Source of the DNA: Thermoplasmata archaeon
Lineage (GTDB): Archaea; Thermoplasmatota; Thermoplasmata; Lutacidiplasmatales; UBA184
NCBI GenBank assembly: GCA_028864975.1
Contig: JAGWLG010000001.1
Coordinates: 64,001 to 128,000, forward strand
Reading direction: 5' to 3'
Length of the DNA stretch: 64,000 nt
Shown: one piece after another, positions 11,912 through 50,731 of the stretch
How the letters are laid out: each line of letters opens with the position of its first letter
How positions within the stretch are numbered: the stretch's first letter is position 1
Program-made: the position numbers and the translations under genes
Notes under the pieces: generated by a model
Database searches by the model: none
Seen by the model: only the letters and a program-made list of their open reading frames with translations
What the model was told of the DNA's origin: nothing

Positions 11912-11996
11912 GCTGGCGTAGCAAAGTTTGGCCAAATGCGACGGACTCAAGATCCGTTCTCGCAGGAGTTCCCAGGTTCAAATCCTGGCGCCAGCA
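11912..11996 (+). tRNA. tRNA-Leu (CAA)
   Basis: Acceptor stem GCTGGCG/CGCCAGC+A, anticodon arm ACGGA-CTCAAGA-TCCGT, long variable arm, T-loop GGTTCAAATCC. Confidence 0.97.
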
Positions 11997-12157
11997 TCGT
12001 CTATCAGCTCCGATCCTATGCATCTGTCACCTCGAACAGGGGGAGAGGGGAGAGGCCCTCCGAAACCCCCCTCCAGCTCGTTCTTCGGGCCGGAGCGACG
12101 GAGGTCCCGCCCCCTCCTCCCTGGGCAGACGGTCCGAGGGCGAGTTCGATGGGTCCT

Positions 12158-13990: not shown

Positions 13991-16550
13991 ATGCGATCTC
14001 GCACCCGTCAGCCCAACGCCACACGCCCAGCGACGACGTGCGCCGCCAAAGACAGCAAGACCAATAGGTGAAAGACCGACAGTGGAAGAAACCGAGAGAC
14101 ACGTAGCGAGGACCAAGGCCGAGCCGGCAACGGCTCGATTGAAGCAGGTCGACAATGGGGAAAGTCGGGCCTTCGGGCTCGGGGACCCCTACGCGAAGCC
14201 GCAGGCCCAATCGCAAGAAAACCCCCGTGGCAGTCGCCACAAGAATGTCGTCACTGGGCCCCTCCGAAAGGAGAGGCATGGGCGCGCCGAGCCTCTGTCG
14301 TCGAGGCGAAGGCAGCACCTTGGGCCGGAACTCGGGAATGAGGTCCAGGGGCGCCCCGGCGTTGCGGGGTGGGCATGTGGTGAAGGTCGGCTGGAAGAAG
14401 GCGGGAGATCCCGCGAGGCTTCGGGACGGGAGGCAAGGTCCACAGGTCCCGTGACCCGGAGCAGGACGGCCATAAGGGTAGGACCCGAAAGGTCGCCCGG
14501 TGCCTCGCGGGAAGTCGGAGAGGTCCGTAGTATCGGTGCGCCGCCTGTAATGGACGGGAAGGAGAAGGGACCTCACTTCGGTGCCGCGCCTGGAGGAGAA
14601 CGAGACCGCCCAAGTGACCGAGAGGTCTAGGACATGGGCAACAGTAAGGTCGGCGAGCTCCAAGAGGCGCTCTACCGAGCGGCAAAGGCGGACGTGGACC
14701 GAAGGTTCCACGCCCTACACGACAAACTCTGGCGTCCCGACGTTCTGCAGGAGGCCTGGGCGAAGGTCCGGGCCAACGGCGGAGCGGCGGGCGTCGACGG
14801 CAAGACCATCAGGGAAGTCGAAGACGAAAGTGTGCCCCGATTCTTGGAGGGGCTGGCGCGCGAACTCAAGGACCCGACGTATCGCCCGAGTCCACTGCGG
14901 CGGGTGTGGATACCAAAGCCCAACGGCAAGAAGCGCGGGCTGGGGATTCCCACCGTCAAGGACCGGGTGGCCCAGGCGGCGGTGAAGCTCTTGCTGGAGC
15001 CCATTTTCGAGGCGGACTTTGAGCCGTTCTCGTTCGGGTTCCGACCGGGGCGGTCCGCCCACGATGCGGTCGCGGAGGTCGTGAAGTACCTCAACTTTGG
15101 CTGCGAGCACGTGGTGGACGCCGACATCTCGGGATGCTTTGACAACATCCCGAAGGACCGCCTGTTGAGAGCAGTAGCGAGACGAGTCTCGGACGGAGCC
15201 TTGCTGAAGTTGATTCGGCAGTGGCTGGACTGTGGTTTGGTGGAAGGCGAGAGCTTTCAGAACCCGGACCGGGGGACCCCGCAGGGTTCCCCCCTGTCTC
15301 CACTGTTGGCCAACATCTACCTCGACAGGCTCGACAAGGGGTGGAGACGATGTGGTCTGGCCGCGCGAGAACGCGCGAACGCCCATCTGGTGAGGTACGC
15401 GGACGACTTCGTCATCCTGGCGAAGCGCGACATACAGGGGGTGAAGGTGACCCTGGACTCGATCATCCGGGAACTGGGGCTGACCCTGAGCCCAGAAAAG
15501 ACGCGGATTGTGGAAGCTGAGGAGGGATTCGACTTCCTCGGCTTCCATTTTCTTCGTCGCTTCAGCCAGGAAAAGGACAAACGCGTAACCTGGTGGTTTC
15601 CCTCCACGAAGTCGAAGCGCAGAATCCGAGAGAGGTTACATGCGCTTACCGGCACCGAGTGTCTTGCTCGGGGGACGTTCAGTGGCATCGTAGAAGAGGT
15701 CGCAGGAACCCTTCGGGGATGGGGAGAGTACTTCCGGCGCAGCAACGCGAGCTCGGCCATCGACCAAATCTGGTGGTACGCTTTCGAGCGCTTGGCCTGG
15801 CTGTACCGGAGGCAACGACCGAGAGGGCGGGTAAAACGAAGGCAGGTCGCATGGGCGGAGAAACGGCTTCGAGCCGTACGCCCGACCGTGCAGGCCTACA
15901 ACCTCCCGAGGCCCGCATGAACGCCGATAGCCGCAAGGTGAACACCGTCGGAGAGCGGAGTGCGGGAAATCCGCCTGCTCCGTTCGACGGGGGGGCAGTG
16001 GAGACGCAGCATGGGAGTCCCTCGGTCGCCGAGGACTCCCATGTCGGAGAACTACGCAACAACGCGAAGAACGCCGAGCGCGCCACTGCCCTACCCTACT
16101 GAACGCACGTCCGGCGACGAATCGTGGGTCGACCAAGAGGCCGACGAGGTCCAGGCCCTGCTCCGTGAGCACGGGCTCGACATGGAACTCTGTGTCTGGT
16201 ACGATCCGAGCACTGAGGTCATGCTCGGAATCGGTTTCGATGGAAGTCCAGCCAGATATTTCCGGTCTCTCGAGTCGGACACGGGAGCGAAGGGTCAGCC
16301 CGTCGCCGAGCCCGCGCTTGGCTGCCACCCGGGCGGCGGGAGCTCGACCTGCCCCCTCCGCTGGGTCCCCTCCCGCGGACCGGCGCAATCCATACCTCAC
16401 GCGCATCCAAGTAGGCGACGAGGAGTGCGTTCGACGTGGAGACCCCTGGGCAGGCCGTCTCGGGCTACCCGCGCCCGCTCGTTCCCCCGGAGGGATTTTT
16501 CCAGAAGGCCTTCGCTAGCGCCCCCGCGCCGGCCACCCCGTCCGACCTGA
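13991..16550 (+). CDS. Intron-interrupted hypothetical ORF, join(13991..14037,16100..16550), 165 aa after splicing
   Basis: ATG 13991 lies 3 nt after the upstream stop. Exon 1 ends in AC and exon 2 begins with T, giving an in-frame ACT: MRSRTRQPNATRPATT-ERTSGDESWVDQEADEVQALLREHGLDMELCVWYDP.. Confidence 0.45.
14254..14259 (+). other. Intron EBS2 (CTGGGC)
   Basis: Exact reverse complement of 5' exon 14025-14030 GCCCAG (IBS2). Confidence 0.85.
14297..14302 (+). other. Intron EBS1 (GTCGTC) in the loop of hairpin GCCTC/GAGGC
   Basis: Exact reverse complement of the last 6 exon nt 14032-14037 GACGAC (IBS1); displayed in stem-loop 14291-14307. Confidence 0.9.
14634..15920 (+). CDS. ltrA: Group II intron reverse transcriptase/maturase
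   Basis: RT0 AWAKVRANGGAAGVDG, RRVWIPKPNGKKRGLGIP, FGFRPGRS, DADISGCFD, GTPQGSPLSPLLANIYL, YADD, FDFLGF, thumb LRGWGEYF; 428 aa, no HNH domain. Confidence 0.97.
   Translation: MGNSKVGELQEALYRAAKADVDRRFHALHDKLWRPDVLQEAWAKVRANGGAAGVDGKTIREVEDESVPRFLEGLARELKDPTYRPSPLRRVWIPKPNGKKRGLGIPTVKDRVAQAAVKLLLEPIFEADFEPFSFGFRPGRSAHDAVAEVVKYLNFGCEHVVDADISGCFDNIPKDRLLRAVARRVSDGALLKLIRQWLDCGLVEGESFQNPDRGTPQGSPLSPLLANIYLDRLDKGWRRCGLAARERANAHLVRYADDFVILAKRDIQGVKVTLDSIIRELGLTLSPEKTRIVEAEEGFDFLGFHFLRRFSQEKDKRVTWWFPSTKSKRRIRERLHALTGTECLARGTFSGIVEEVAGTLRGWGEYFRRSNASSAIDQIWWYAFERLAWLYRRQRPRGRVKRRQVAWAEKRLRAVRPTVQAYNLPRPA
15953..16099 (+). ncRNA. Group II intron catalytic domain V and extended domain VI
   Basis: D5 GAGCGGAGTGCGGGAAATCCGCCTGCTCCGTTC with AGC triad; D6 stem 15989-16001 pairs with 16083-16096 leaving A16093 bulged; internal hairpin 16010-16043. 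Confidence 0.9.
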
Positions 16551-18619: not shown

Positions 18620-20206
18620 GTGACGGCGAACGACCCTCTCCAAAACGACGCGGCCTGGGTGAGGTGCCCGTTCTGTCACGCTTCGCTCTCCGGAACCCCC
18701 CTCCATCAGCACATGGCGAGGAGCCACGCGGCCATGGCCCGCCCTTCTGCACCCCCTCCACCCCCGGACCTCTCCCCGACCCCGGAACCTTCCCATAGGG
18801 CGGACCCCGGGATGATCGAGGACCCGACGTCGCCCCTCACTCCGGCGGAACTCGCGATCTTGGAAGATGGGACCCGAGAACTGGCCTTGGCGAGGAGCTC
18901 GGCCCTCGCGCCGGTCGAGACTCCCGTGCCCCCCGCTGCCGCGGCGACCCCCGACCCCCTCCCGCTCCCGACGGGAGAGAGCCCTCTCCCCCAAGTGGGG
19001 GGGGAGCTCACCACCCTCCGCCACAGCTGGCAAGAGCTGGGAGAGCGGATGGCCCTCCTCCAGTCACGGCTCGCCTCCCGCGAGGCGGCGGCGCGGAGGG
19101 AGCTCACCCGGCTCGAAGAAGAACGGTCCCAGACGGAATCGCGGGTACGTGGTCTCGAAGAGGACCTTGAGCAGGAGCGGTCCTCCCGACAGCGGTCGGA
19201 AGAGTCGCTGCGGCAGGTGCAGGAAGGCCTCCGGGCCCGGGAACAAGAGCTCCAGACCGAGCGCTCCTCGCGCGAGCAGGTGGAGGGCCTGCTCGAACAT
19301 GCCCGAGCGGACGGGGCCGAGAGCGCCCGGCGCATCCAACAGGTCTCGGGGGAGCTCGCCTCCGTGGTCGAGGAGCGCGGGCGGCTCCAGCAGGCCCAGG
19401 CGGTGCTCGGACAGCGGCGTGGAGCTGAGGAGCGGCAGCTGCTCAAGGCCGCCAAGATGCTTCGAGAGGCCCACTCCGAGCTGCAGCAGCGCGATGAGAA
19501 CCTGAGGGTCCTTGAAGCGAAGCTCGAAGGAACGGAACACGAGCTTGGAGCGGCTCGCGCGAGGGCCGAGACCGGCGAGATGGAGTCTTCCAGGAGGATC
19601 GCGGAGGTGAGCTCTCAGCTCAGATCCGAGCGTGACCAACGCGCAGACATCGAGCATCGGCTCGCGGAGTCGAGCGCCAGGGTCGCGGCGTTGGAAAAGG
19701 AGGTCGCGGCGCTACGCTCGGCTCCGCCGCCCGGACCGGAGAAGACCGTCCGAGCCCTTCCACCCTCCGCAGGCCCCGTGCCTTGCGTTCCGGTGGGATT
19801 CCTCGGGCCTCGGAGCCCCTCGGTCGTGAAGGAGGCCTACTTCGCGCTCGGAAAGGGGGAGGCGCTCGAGCGGCTCCTCGAGACGACGCTACGTCGTTGG
19901 GGGTCGCTCCCCTATCCCATGGTCCCGACCGGCGGGCCGAACGAGCCGTTCTCGATAGTTCTCCGAGGCGACCCGCAGGGTCGATCGATCCGGGTCCTCC
20001 ACTCCGGGGCCTTCCTTCTGCGGCTCGGAGAGCAGGAGCTCTCCGAGGTCGGGGAGCTTCCGACACTGGTGCGAAGGCGGTCCACAGGGTCCCCCGTCCG
20101 TGCGACCTCACTCGCCTCCCGTTCCTGGCGCTCCTCTCCGGAAGCGCGCTCTGCTCCACCGAAGAAGGCCCCCGAAGGCGGGGCGGCGGCGCTAGTTCGC
20201 CCTTAA
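18620..20206 (+). CDS. C2H2-type Zn finger + long coiled-coil protein
   Basis: CPFC..HQHMARSH, Pro-rich linker, about 240 aa of E/R/L/Q heptads, globular C-terminus. Confidence 0.7.
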   Translation: MTANDPLQNDAAWVRCPFCHASLSGTPLHQHMARSHAAMARPSAPPPPPDLSPTPEPSHRADPGMIEDPTSPLTPAELAILEDGTRELALARSSALAPVETPVPPAAAATPDPLPLPTGESPLPQVGGELTTLRHSWQELGERMALLQSRLASREAAARRELTRLEEERSQTESRVRGLEEDLEQERSSRQRSEESLRQVQEGLRAREQELQTERSSREQVEGLLEHARADGAESARRIQQVSGELASVVEERGRLQQAQAVLGQRRGAEERQLLKAAKMLREAHSELQQRDENLRVLEAKLEGTEHELGAARARAETGEMESSRRIAEVSSQLRSERDQRADIEHRLAESSARVAALEKEVAALRSAPPPGPEKTVRALPPSAGPVPCVPVGFLGPRSPSVVKEAYFALGKGEALERLLETTLRRWGSLPYPMVPTGGPNEPFSIVLRGDPQGRSIRVLHSGAFLLRLGEQELSEVGELPTLVRRRSTGSPVRATSLASRSWRSSPEARSAPPKKAPEGGAAALVRP

Positions 20207-48574: not shown

Positions 48575-49446
48575 ACTGCTCCCGGTCCCGCAGGGATAGG
48601 GAGCAGAGGAAGGGAGGTCGCGGCCGATGAGCGGGGAGGGGCTTGACGCGGCTCGGGAACGACCCAGGTGCCGCCGCGAGGGGTCCCTTCCGAAGGGACG
48701 AGGTCCAGGGTACCGATCCAGACCCCCCGAGCCCCCTCGGACAGCATGCGAAGCGCCCCCTCTAGCTTGGGGATCATTCCACCGTGGACCGTCCCATTCT
48801 CGATGAGGGCTCTCGCCTTGGACGGCGTGAGCCGCTCGATCGGTGCTCCATCCGTGCCCCGGACCCCCGGGACGTCGGTTACAAGCAGGAGATCGCCCCC
48901 GACGGCCCCGGCGATCCCTGCCGCGAAGAGGTCGGCGTTGACATTGAGAACGCCCCCTTTCCCGTCGGAAGCGAGCGGGGCCAGGACCGGCACGGACCCC
49001 AATTGGAACAACGCGAGGAGCAGCGTGGGATCGACACGCGCGGGTTCGCCCACGGCACCTAGCCGCCCCTCCTGGACGTCACGGGCGAGCAGAAGGTCCG
49101 CCGAGACCCCCGAGAGCCCGACGGCCCGCAGGCCCGCCTCATTGAGCGCCGAGACCAGGCGGAGGTTCACCGTCCCCGCGAGCACCCCTTCGACGAGCGG
49201 GAGGACTTCCGGAGGCGTGACGCGCTGTCCATCGACCTTCTCGACGGGGAGGTGGAGACGGGCGGAGAGCTCCGAGACCTCCTCGCCTCCGCCATGGACC
49301 AGGACGAGCGGCCCGCTGCGCCGCGCCTCGGCGACGACCCAACGGACCAGCTGGTCGAGGGCCGGACCGGGGCGGACCTCCCGTCCTCCGACCTTGACCA
49401 CACGCGGGACCCCCGTCAGGGGTCCCACCGCCTTCGCGAGCCGCAT
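48571..49446 (-). CDS. argB: Acetylglutamate kinase
   Basis: VVKVGG, VHGGG, GQRVT, NVNAD, TDVPGV, GGMIPKL. Confidence 0.93.
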   Translation of the reverse strand: MRLAKAVGPLTGVPRVVKVGGREVRPGPALDQLVRWVVAEARRSGPLVLVHGGGEEVSELSARLHLPVEKVDGQRVTPPEVLPLVEGVLAGTVNLRLVSALNEAGLRAVGLSGVSADLLLARDVQEGRLGAVGEPARVDPTLLLALFQLGSVPVLAPLASDGKGGVLNVNADLFAAGIAGAVGGDLLLVTDVPGVRGTDGAPIERLTPSKARALIENGTVHGGMIPKLEGALRMLSEGARGVWIGTLDLVPSEGTPRGGTWVVPEPRQAPPRSSAATSLPLLPIPAGPGAV

Positions 49447-49471
49447 CGCTCTCGTTCCCAAGTCCTCGCCC

Positions 49472-50731
49472 CTAGGTCCGGTACTGGGCGTTGATCTGCA
49501 CGTAGCCGTAGGAAAGGTCGCAGCCCCAGGCGGTCGCCCGCGCCGGTCCGTTCCCCAGCTGGACGTCGAGGACGACCTCTTCCAGCCGCTGGAGGACGTT
49601 GTGGAGGCGGTGGCCCTGGCCGTTGTCCAGCCCCGGGGCCGGGGTGCCGTGAAGGATGAGCGGCCAGTTCTTCGGCCCGTCGACGAGCCGAACGTCCAGG
49701 TCCTGGGTCTCGAAGGTCGCGCCGGAGTATCCCAGCGCACAGGCGATGCGCCCGACGTTCGGGTCGGCGCCGAAGAGCGCCGTCTTCACGAGGAGGGAGC
49801 TCGCGACCGAGCGGGCCGCCTGACGTGCCTCGTGAGCGTCCGCCGCCCCGTGGACGTTCACGGTGAGGAGCTTGGTCGCCCCTTCCCCATCGCGGGCGAC
49901 GGAACGGGCCAGGCGCTCGAGGACGTAGGCGACCCCCCGGGCGAGCGCGGGGTCATCGTCGGCGAGGGCTCCCCCCGCCTCGCCGTTGGCGAAAGCGAGC
50001 ACGGTGTCGTTCGTCGAGGTGTCCCCGTCGACGCTGATCATGTTGAACGTGCGGTCCGCCTCCCGCGTGAGGAGGCCCTGCCACCCCGGCGTGCTGACCC
50101 GCGCGTCGGTGGTCAGGAAGGCGAGGGTGGTGGCGTGAGGAGGTCCCACCGAGGGGGCGATCATGCCGCTCCCCTTGGCCATTCCGCCCAGGCGGGCACG
50201 GGTGCCGTCCGCAAGGCGGACCGAGACCGCGGCCTCCTTCGTGCGGGTGTCCGTGGTCAGGATCGCCGTCGCGGCGCGCGTCGAGGCGGGACGATCGGAG
50301 GCCAGCGCGTGCACCGCCTGGGGCAAGTGCGATTCGACGCGCTCGACCGGGATGCGCGGGCCGATCACGCCGGTGGCCGCGTGGTAGACCGAGCCCTGGG
50401 GAAGCTTCAGCGCCCCTTCTGCGAGCTCGATGACGCGGCGCGAGTCGGCGAGCCCCTCGGGGCCGGTCAGCGCGTTTGCGACGCCGCTCACGACGACGAG
50501 GCCGCGGGCCTCCCCGGGGTGCTCCCGCAGGAGCCCTTCGCAGATCTCGACGGGCGCCGCACGCACGCGATTCGTTGTGAAGAGGCCGGCCACCGTGGCC
50601 GGTCTCTCGCTCACCAGCAGCGCGAGGTCAGGGCGGAGCGACCGCTTGATTCCGCAGGCGAGTCCGCTGGCCCGGTAGCCCTTCGGGAAGGTGATGCCGT
50701 GGTCCGAGACGGAGAACTCCCCGAGGCTCAT
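49472..50731 (-). CDS. argJ: Ornithine acetyltransferase / N-acetylglutamate synthase
   Basis: GIK..PDL, FTTNRVRAAP, TGVIG, ILTTDT..K, KGSGMIAP..AT, DGDTSTND, DGEGATK, WGCDLSYGYV..N. Confidence 0.96.
   Translation of the reverse strand: MSLGEFSVSDHGITFPKGYRASGLACGIKRSLRPDLALLVSERPATVAGLFTTNRVRAAPVEICEGLLREHPGEARGLVVVSGVANALTGPEGLADSRRVIELAEGALKLPQGSVYHAATGVIGPRIPVERVESHLPQAVHALASDRPASTRAATAILTTDTRTKEAAVSVRLADGTRARLGGMAKGSGMIAPSVGPPHATTLAFLTTDARVSTPGWQGLLTREADRTFNMISVDGDTSTNDTVLAFANGEAGGALADDDPALARGVAYVLERLARSVARDGEGATKLLTVNVHGAADAHEARQAARSVASSLLVKTALFGADPNVGRIACALGYSGATFETQDLDVRLVDGPKNWPLILHGTPAPGLDNGQGHRLHNVLQRLEEVVLDVQLGNGPARATAWGCDLSYGYVQINAQYRT

Follow-up and report, generated by a model that had tools for sequence, protein, structure and literature searches.

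A probably active group II intron, IIF-like and endonuclease-less, in a small cassette gene of a non-methanogenic Thermoplasmata archaeon

The DNA analysed here is a stretch of 64,000 nucleotides (henceforth the window; positions 64,001 to 128,000, forward strand, of contig JAGWLG010000001.1) from the metagenome-assembled genome (MAG) of a Thermoplasmata archaeon, GCA_028864975.1 (G000 in our genome set). Within the window, a small protein-coding gene is interrupted by a complete group II intron of 2062 nt, which is supported by Rfam matches to its domain I (D1) and to domains V and VI (D5/D6), by covariation among relatives and by identical copies in the same genome. The 5' coding part of the gene encodes MRSRTRQPNATRPAT and contributes the AC of a split threonine codon, and the 3' part carries the conserved core WVD..ADEVQALL..HGL.MEL..YDP..GFDG.PARYFRSLE. 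Domain IV (D4) of the intron encodes a reverse transcriptase (RT)/maturase. The interrupted gene stands third in a multi-copy cassette, following genes for a winged helix-turn-helix-like (wHTH-like) protein of 133 amino acids (aa) and a protein of 213 aa, and itself encoding a small protein of 90–110 aa. Coordinates are compiled in Table 1. We regard it as very probable that the element functions as a mobile group II intron, composed of a ribozyme and an RT/maturase, in a non-methanogenic Thermoplasmata host.

The intron begins with GTGCGCCGCC and ends with CCCTACCCTAC, i.e., with GTGCG at 14038–14042 and ...CCCTAC at 16099, in agreement with the GUGYG/AY rule, and the GUGCGCC start is kept in 12 relatives in an alignment of 5' segments. 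This comparative alignment was built from twelve segments (the window intron and 11 relatives), anchored at GUGCGCC, and comprised 699 columns. The relatives were L009 (83% aa identity) and L010–L012 (75%), which were retrieved from a collection of genomes from 185,579 species and are titled Thermoplasmata archaeon, as well as loci numbered within L014–L037 from a sample of 301 genomes of the host class (Thermoplasmata). Folding of the 5' 600 nt with RNAalifold (11 relatives) supported D1 to D3 and the D4 stem with 146 consensus pairs, 81 of them compensatory. The Rfam D1 model RF02003 (D1D4-4) matched positions 14062–14216 at 46.7 bits (E-value mode), and RF02005 gave a partial match of 36.5 bits spanning the region of exon-binding site 1 (EBS1). 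At the 3' side, the covariance model Intron_gpII (RF00029; D5/D6) matched 15951–16099 with 43.4 bits, above its gathering threshold of 40 (E 3e-5, whole window). In D5, helices of 9 bp and 4 bp are separated by a CU bulge, and a GAAAU loop closes the distal one; this loop, taken for non-canonical in an earlier note made from the letters of this DNA alone, is a described feature of classes E and F (PMC3753933) and is kept across the clade described below and its bacterial neighbours. D6 forms a long stem in which A16093, the seventh base from the intron end, is the sole unpaired base. The D5/D6 fold had a z-score of −8.35, and 0 of 200 shuffled sequences folded as well. Without the open reading frame (ORF), the ribozyme measures 775 nt, and about 675 nt without the D6 insert. 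The pairing between alpha and alpha' covaries among relatives (L018 AUCGCA/UGCGGU; L017 AUCGGA/UCCGGU; L016 ACCGAA/UUCGGU). The D6 extension is common to the window intron and L009–L012, and D6 is short in L014–L019 of the same clade, so that a long D6 is not diagnostic for the Thermoplasmata clade.

The intron-encoded protein (IEP) was recognised by the profiles RVT_1 (4e-42) and GIIM (7.5e-8) and matched the NCBIfam group II RT/maturase equivalog TIGR04416 over its full length at 387 bits (cut-off 300). Models of retron, Drt and Abi RTs yielded only 15–59 bits for this ORF against cut-offs of 200–600. Annotation pipelines would already give the ORF its correct name. The DNA-binding/endonuclease (D/En) domain is absent: 25 aa remain after domain X (GIIM), and no HNH match was obtained in the profile search. 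The earlier note had described an intact, apparently splicing-competent intron with GTGCG and AC ends, an AGC triad in D5, a bulged A16093, a YADD motif and no endonuclease domain, and each of these elements was recovered in the present analysis.

Table 1 Features of the intron, the interrupted gene and the cassette in the window
Feature	Position	Strand	Remarks
Cassette gene 1, wHTH-like, 133 aa	12960–13361	+	5–9 paralogues in G000 next to small-gene copies
Cassette gene 2, 213 aa	13346–13987	+	5–9 paralogues in G000 next to small-gene copies
5' exon, coding part of small gene	13991–14037	+	ends within a Thr codon
IBS2 (GCCCAG), 5' exon	14025–14030	+	complementary to EBS2 14254–14259
IBS1 (GACGAC), last 6 nt of 5' exon	14032–14037	+	6 bp with EBS1
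Complete group II intron	14038–16099	+	2062 nt
Domain I	14043–14404	+	closed by CCGCC/GGCGG; RNAalifold on the 12-segment alignment
alpha (CCGAG)	14092–14096	+	loop of hairpin 14081–14103; pairs with alpha' CUCGG 14331–14335
EBS2 (CUGGGC)	14254–14259	+	single-stranded, directly 3' of helix 14245–14250/14357–14362; exon covariation
EBS1 (GUCGUC)	14297–14302	+	in the 7-nt terminal loop (14296–14302) of hairpin 14286–14313; IBS1 covariation
alpha' (CUCGG)	14331–14335	+	terminal loop of DId3 stem-loop 14318–14350; covaries with alpha
Candidate EBS3 (G)	14364	+	pairs with first 3'-exon base: U here (G-U), C in two other copies
Domain II	14405–14516	+	RNAalifold
Domain III	14517–14577	+	RNAalifold
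RT (fingers/palm, YADD) and X/maturase, 428 aa, in domain IV	14634–15920	+	RVT_1, GIIM, TIGR04416
Domain V	15953–15985	+	AGC triad, 2-nt CU bulge, 4-bp distal helix, 5-nt GAAAU loop
Domain VI, extended (~108 nt)	15989–16096	+	fold; 15-bp distal hairpin; branch-point A16093 bulged
IBS3 (T), first 3'-exon base	16100	+	flank sequence, EBS3 column
3' exon, coding part of small gene	16100–16550	+	contains the conserved core

Target recognition was assessed by pairing the exon-binding sites of each aligned intron with the intron-binding sites (IBS) of its own and of non-own exons. EBS1 covaries with IBS1 across 9 independent insertion sites (window GUCGUC/GACGAC; L010–L012 CAUCGC/GCGAUG; L015 UCGUGG/CUACGA; L016 AGUUAG/CUGACU; L017 AUGUCC/GGACAU; L018 UACUUC/GAAGUA; L036 UACUUU/AAGGUA; L037 UGCUGU/ACAGCA), and EBS1 paired with its own exon at 6/6 positions in 8 of 11 introns compared to 2.8% of the non-own intron/exon combinations. 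Likewise, EBS2 covaries with IBS2 (L016 GAUUAA/UUAAUC; L036 UGCACG/CGUGCA; L017 GCAUA/UAUGC; L019 GCCUU/GAGGC), with 5/5 own pairs in 7 of 11 introns versus 9.4% of non-own pairs. The window intron pairs with its real flanks at 6/6 positions for both EBS1 and EBS2, as the earlier note had claimed, and the pairing is beyond what chance would give. The motif GTCGTC occurs twice in D1, at 14247–14252 and in the hairpin loop at 14297–14302, and the latter copy is the true EBS1. The former, considered as a second EBS1 forming a 13-nt antisense to the exon, was rejected because GUCGU is invariant there in relatives with unrelated targets; it overlaps a helix in which AUGUCG (14245–14250) pairs with CGGCGU (14357–14362), with compensatory change at columns 218/331 (GC in 6, AU in 6). 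For the candidate EBS3, alignment column 336 holds G in most rows, U in L015 (3' exon A) and A in L017 (3' exon U), a pattern displayed by only 2 of the 699 columns. No hairpin of note was found at the window insertion site (5' exon fold z-score −2.0).

Targeting in L010–L012 takes another form. These introns lie directly after a 13-bp hairpin and an ATG (CATCGCYCGTTCC...GGAACGAGCGATG/GTGCG, with a slash marking the junction; at 2340–2400 of each locus), the 5' arm of this hairpin has the same sequence as their EBS1 (CAUCGC), and the usual zone showed no EBS2 pairing. The targeting is IIC-like, in introns that are themselves IIF-like. Their 3' exons were considered as homologues of the small target gene, which was dropped since tblastn gave no match.

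When position 14037 is joined to 16100, an ORF running from the ATG at 13991 is obtained, MRSRTRQPNATRPATT/ERTSGDESWVDQEADEVQALL..., whose protein junction reads ...RPATT/ERTSGDESWVDQ...; the predicted spliced junction is ...GCGACGAC/TGAACGCA.... By tblastn, nine further copies of the small gene were found in G000, and the paralogues on contigs C8, C44, C66 and C71 are uninterrupted across the junction at both the protein and the DNA level (RPATTDR in C8, RPATTEP in C71). The gene also occurs, in six copies, in the related genome G045 from this family; one of the copies reads GCCCTGCGACGAC/A at the site and is hence intron-less, and a group II RT was not detectable in G045. The small gene was not found in the other 299 sampled genomes. 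Because the ligated ORF matches the uninterrupted paralogues and the G045 copy, the intron boundaries are exact. The true stop of the small gene may lie before 16550; the tail is of low complexity, and the paralogues measure about 90–110 aa.

Intron ends of 100% identity were located on three other contigs of G000, in all cases at the contig end, and these intron copies break the assembly. On C97, the 5' 133 nt of the intron, starting with GTGCG, come directly after GGCCCAGCGACGAA and split a paralogue in the same codon phase as in the window; on C17, the 3' 118 nt are followed by a paralogous 3' exon, again in the same phase; and on C93, the 3' 128 nt are followed by an unrelated flank. The three contig-end matches imply at least three copies, identical at every comparable base, and at least two of these lie in paralogues of the one small gene. 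At the occupied sites (window and C97), IBS2 is GCCCAG. Empty sites have GCCCCG (C71), ACCCGC (C8) or GCCCTG (G045) as IBS2, or a diverged IBS1 (C44, C66). This difference fits EBS2-guided homing, a role of EBS2 proposed for these classes by Nagy et al. (PMC3753933). Together, the at least three identical copies and the empty paralogous sites support recent retrohoming, and the intron, which is intact, is probably active.

By analogy with established group II biology, splicing, branching and priming would proceed as follows; for the predicted splicing, the restored and conserved ORF and the empty paralogous sites are indirect support. The cassette transcript would fold, and the maturase bound at D4 would help the ribozyme to splice through A16093, which would join 14037 to 16100 and restore an ORF of about 90–165 aa. 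The lariat ribonucleoprotein would find the DNA sequence GCCCAG-N-GACGA(C/A), followed across the insertion point by (U/C), via pairing of EBS2, EBS1 and EBS3, and would reverse-splice into it. Without an endonuclease, copying would start from a host-derived primer, as in RmInt1 at replication forks, and this course would account for the at least three identical copies, at least two of which lie in paralogues of one small gene.

For phylogenetic placement, a maximum likelihood tree of 55 RT rows was calculated with labelled class anchors. Anchor labels were taken from Table S3 of Miura 2022 and Table S2 of Toro 2013, and the sequences from the plasmid collection; the classes of the Miura table were checked on known cases (RmInt1, class D at 1.88 kb; the pO157 intron, CL1A). 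Anchors were RmInt1 for class D, the introns of Sinorhizobium meliloti (pSymA) and Klebsiella pneumoniae (pKP13f) for class E, an S. meliloti intron and the intron of the Thermoplasmatota methanogen ISO4-H5 for class C, the pO157 intron for CL1A, Rh.js.I1 and Sr.me.I2 for g1, Ni.ha.I1 for g3/F, and Rh.sp.I1 as unclassified. The trees were calculated without classes A, B, ML, CL2, g2 (B.th.I3 on pBMB67) and g4–g6, and without UA.I4, Ge.ur.I1, Pe.th.I2 and So.us.I2; the Escherichia coli class A copy is broken by IS3 and was therefore left out. The Thermoplasmata RTs formed one clade of 17 rows (ultrafast bootstrap (UFboot) 97, Shimodaira–Hasegawa-like approximate likelihood ratio test (SH-aLRT) 94), within which 12 rows made up an inner clade (UFboot 100, SH-aLRT 99). 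This clade lies inside a 43-row group together with Ni.ha.I1 and Rh.sp.I1 (UFboot 84, SH-aLRT 91), apart from class C (UFboot 100, SH-aLRT 96), from D+E, from g1 and from CL1A.

The ribozyme was compared to the same anchors. The class C anchors matched the Rfam D1 models RF02001/RF01998 (ISO4-H5, the G199 intron and the S. meliloti class C intron), the class D anchor RF01999, the class E anchors RF02005, strongly at 147–185 bits, and the CL1A anchor RF02012. RF02003 was matched by the window intron and L009–L011, and also by the closest listed RT loci outside the clade (Streptomyces, Leptospira, Microvirga, Enterococcus faecalis, E. coli plasmids and the Thermoplasmata genome G078); those loci outside the clade group with the F and unclassified anchors in the tree. 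A 33-nt D5 with a pentaloop is present in all clade members, in the class E anchor and in the bacterial relatives that group with the F and unclassified anchors; in the anchors of class D and CL1A, D5 has 5 bp and a tetraloop instead. Introns of classes IIE and IIF were distinguished from other IIB-like introns by an alpha' at the tip of the DId3 stem-loop and a 5-nt D5 loop, and by a length of 450–700 nt without the IEP, with IIF in addition having a long structured D6 (PMC3753933). All four hallmarks hold in the window intron, which was therefore called IIF-like.

That the element might be a splicing-dead or immobile relic, in which motifs have survived and the small host gene is merely inactivated, was weighed against this evidence. 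Splicing and lariat formation are predicted from sequence, and the host ORF tail past the conserved core looks degenerate. The C97 site has an A at −1, facing a G of EBS1, which is a mismatch, and some related class E introns only hydrolyse in vitro (PMC3753933). Furthermore, one 5' junction besides that of the window is available, two of the three 3' junctions are unpaired to a known 5' exon, and identical contig-end fragments of a MAG could in principle stem from strain mixtures. These points speak for a relic or otherwise against a functional mobile intron. That the 3' flanks differ in all three cases, however, points to separate sites and not to a strain mixture. Over all overlapping bases (ends of 133, 128 and 118 nt), the at least three copies are identical and their flanks are different, whereas a relic would have accumulated differences. 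The ORF is uninterrupted, with TIGR04416 matching at full length, and all tested ribozyme pairings as well as the D5/D6 fold are intact. A relic is hence improbable. Mis-binning of a bacterial contig, which would make the intron non-archaeal, could be suspected from the contamination of the MAG (estimated at 1.9%) and from a size of 3.6 Mb and a G+C content of 67%, which are high for the class. However, the same 64-kb window encodes a replication factor C (RFC) small subunit (450 bits, cut-off 303) and an archaeal-type glutamyl-tRNA synthetase (GluRS; TIGR00463, 449 bits, above the curated cut-off), the window contig (C32) spans 219 kb, intron copies occur on three more contigs, one of them of 150 kb, and the close relatives are all Thermoplasmata from independent studies. 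Mis-binning is excluded for practical purposes. G000 also contains an archaeal small subunit (16S) rRNA, and McrA was not found at its completeness of 89.6%, with methanogen controls being positive; the earlier view of a non-methanogenic, Thermoplasmatota-like host is thus borne out. Regarding origin, a recent horizontal arrival of a bacterial endonuclease-less intron would agree with the overwhelmingly bacterial distribution of group II introns and with the bacterial membership of the wider assemblage (Streptomyces, Rhodococcus, Enterococcus, Leptospira and Nitrobacter plasmids, at 41–46% identity). Against this, relatives within the clade at 83, 75, 71, 57, 56, 53 and 45% identity, from several families, are all Thermoplasmata, and they form a single clade in a tree that also contains the closest listed bacterial RTs. 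Among the matches listed in the 185,579-species scan, the best bacterial RT identity is 47–48%, all of the nearest introns reside in Thermoplasmata MAGs, and L009, the nearest of them, interrupts the same target gene in another Thermoplasmata MAG. A Thermoplasmata-only clade with bacterial RTs at no more than 48% identity among the matches listed points to a resident archaeal lineage and not to a recent bacterial import, which we consider unlikely, if slightly less so than a relic; an ancient transfer from bacteria is possible. Of the earlier proposal of recent retrohoming from a bacterial-type lineage, the recent retrohoming therefore stands, given the identical copies and the empty sites, and the bacterial import does not.

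The rival assignment as a class C (IIC) intron, like that of ISO4-H5, draws on the nearest solved structures, of which the GsI-IIC RT (2e-58) and the E.r. IIC RT (2.5e-54) rank first, followed by the TeI4h RT, on an IEP of about 430 aa, which is an IIC-like size, and on the position of L010–L012 directly after a hairpin, which is an IIC habit. A class call from the solved structures was dropped because RTs of classes E and F are absent from the Protein Data Bank (PDB), and the ranking is hence uninformative on class. In addition, the window intron has a covarying EBS2 and a 6-bp EBS1, its D1 model is RF02003 instead of RF02001/RF01998, the class C anchors (n = 3) form their own clade, the identity to the ISO4-H5 IEP is 39%, and at the window site no hairpin abuts the intron, which is inserted within coding sequence. 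Class C is thus very unlikely, as the earlier note had argued from EBS2. Class E was rejected since its anchors group with class D away from the clade and since RF02005 scored far higher in them than in the window intron. In structure, the intron is small, IIB-like and of the class E/F type, and it was called IIF-like. It may formally belong to class F, but several points weigh against this: the placement depends on one F anchor (Ni.ha.I1) among the anchors given above, at a moderate support of UFboot 84 and SH-aLRT 91, class F is itself a poorly supported clade (PMC3552965), and the long D6 is not common to the deeper clade members.

Among known systems, the bacterial introns of class F and of unclassified status (Ni.ha.I1, Rh.sp.I1, Pe.th.I2, Ge.ur.I1) are most comparable. 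They share an RT-X protein that lacks D/En and measures about 430 aa, the intron length of about 2.0 kb (1.9–2.2 kb in Toro Table S2; PMC3552965), the IIB-like D1 with EBS1 and EBS2, an alpha' in a terminal loop, a pentaloop D5 and a long D6. Two of them, Ni.ha.I1 and Rh.sp.I1, fall in the same 43-row RT group, and RF02003 is common to the window intron and the bacterial relatives grouping with these anchors. The window intron differs from them in belonging to a separate, Thermoplasmata-only clade (at most 48% identity among the matches listed), in the first D5 bulge base (C here, A there) and in its long D6 being a recent addition within the clade. Class F is used here in the sense of Simon 2008, and of F together with g2–g5 and the unclassified introns in Toro 2013. 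UA.I4 from an uncultured archaeon (fosmid GZfos14B8; Zimmerly database) also has an archaeal host and an RT-X protein of 430 aa in 2064 nt (428 aa in 2062 nt here); Table S2 of Toro 2013 (PMC3552965) gives it as 'Unclassified', and it is placed with the endonuclease-less varieties of F/unclassified status. It may be kin of the window intron, a lead from the listed sizes alone, although its host is represented by an ANME-type methanotroph fosmid and not by a member of Thermoplasmata. Catalogued archaeal introns comprise CL1A/CL1B and class D in Methanosarcina and class C in ISO4-H5 (Miura 2022, PMC8919778). They resemble the window intron in having an archaeal host, archaeal IEP clades of their own, a low copy number (2–10) and an association with mobile or repeated DNA, whereas the window RT falls in none of the clades aC, aD, aCL1A and aCL1B (PMC8919778); ISO4-H5 further differs in its IEP grouping with class C, and no McrA was found in the window host. 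RmInt1 (S. meliloti, class D, IIB3) is likewise endonuclease-less and multi-copy, with EBS1/EBS2/EBS3-directed homing in a repeated element, and is the likely model for endonuclease-independent priming of the window intron, whereas its RT is 35% identical and belongs to the D+E clade, its D5 has 34 nt with a tetraloop, and its D1D4 model is RF01999.

Regarding the remainder of the genome, G000 (3.6 Mb, 67.4% G+C) exceeds the 1.4–2.5 Mb of other listed class members, and the repeated cassettes and contig-end introns suggest that it is repeat-rich. It holds a second, unrelated group II intron, of class D, at C92:48600–50470 (locus L041, about 940–2793), with the RT at 49173–50315, D5/D6 at 50390–50465 (57 bits) and a D1 that matches RF01999; its RT groups with RmInt1 at 100% support. 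The cassette is present in about 8–10 diverged copies (contigs C8, C35, C53, C68, C71, C88, C92, C97 and C98, several very short) and was found outside G000 only in G045 (6 copies) among the 300 sampled genomes, plus the L009 MAG. Searches of Pfam, PHROGs, PADLOC and NCBIfam with the cassette gave nothing. Cassette and intron are bracketed by an imperfect direct repeat of 21 nt (19/21; 12055–12075 and 18685–18705), which begins 60 nt past a tRNA-Leu(CAA) gene (11912–11996) and possibly marks the ends of a 6.6-kb island; no integrase was recognised. An attachment (att)-type tRNA-Leu repeat marking an integrated element was looked for, and only this weak 21-nt repeat was found. Among the 301 sampled genomes of the class, 23 carry a group II RT, in at least five lineages. 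Outside the clade of the window intron, the RT of L024 (G078) groups with Ni.ha.I1 (g3/F), those of L031 (G138, which by its matching coordinates is the ISO4-H5 genome) and L030 (G199) with class C, and that of L032 (G039) with the CL1A intron of pO157.

Archaeal group II introns have been known since 2003. The earlier picture of them as rare and described mainly from Methanosarcina is dated, given the 23 genomes found here and two surveys: of the complete Thermoplasmatota genomes, 15% were reported to contain group II introns, with the class C intron of the methanogen ISO4-H5 as the case listed (Miura 2022, PMC8919778), and such introns were reported in all archaeal supergroups (Mattick 2024, bioRxiv 10.1101/2024.12.10.627823). 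The new part is modest and consists of a Thermoplasmata-specific IIF-like clade outside the four IEP clades of Miura, together with a well-documented, probably active member with a defined target. A further-reaching reading would make the Thermoplasmata RT clade a distinct archaeal IIF-like class, a fifth lineage beside aC, aD, aCL1A and aCL1B that diversified within Thermoplasmata and is here specialised on one cassette site with splicing-gated expression of the small gene. We hold this to be unlikely; if true, expression of the small gene would depend on splicing, and the intron would act as a switch and not as a mere parasite. Knowledge of how group II introns work is unchanged by these results. 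They add a boundary-defined, apparently active, endonuclease-less IIF-like intron from a non-methanogenic archaeon, and a lineage spread over several Thermoplasmata families as a clade of its own. The EBS1/EBS2/EBS3 rules, together with occupied and empty paralogues differing in IBS2, constitute a ready specificity table for testing or retargeting, and the intron and its lineage can inform both catalogues of archaeal retroelements and the debate on the residence time of group II introns in archaea.

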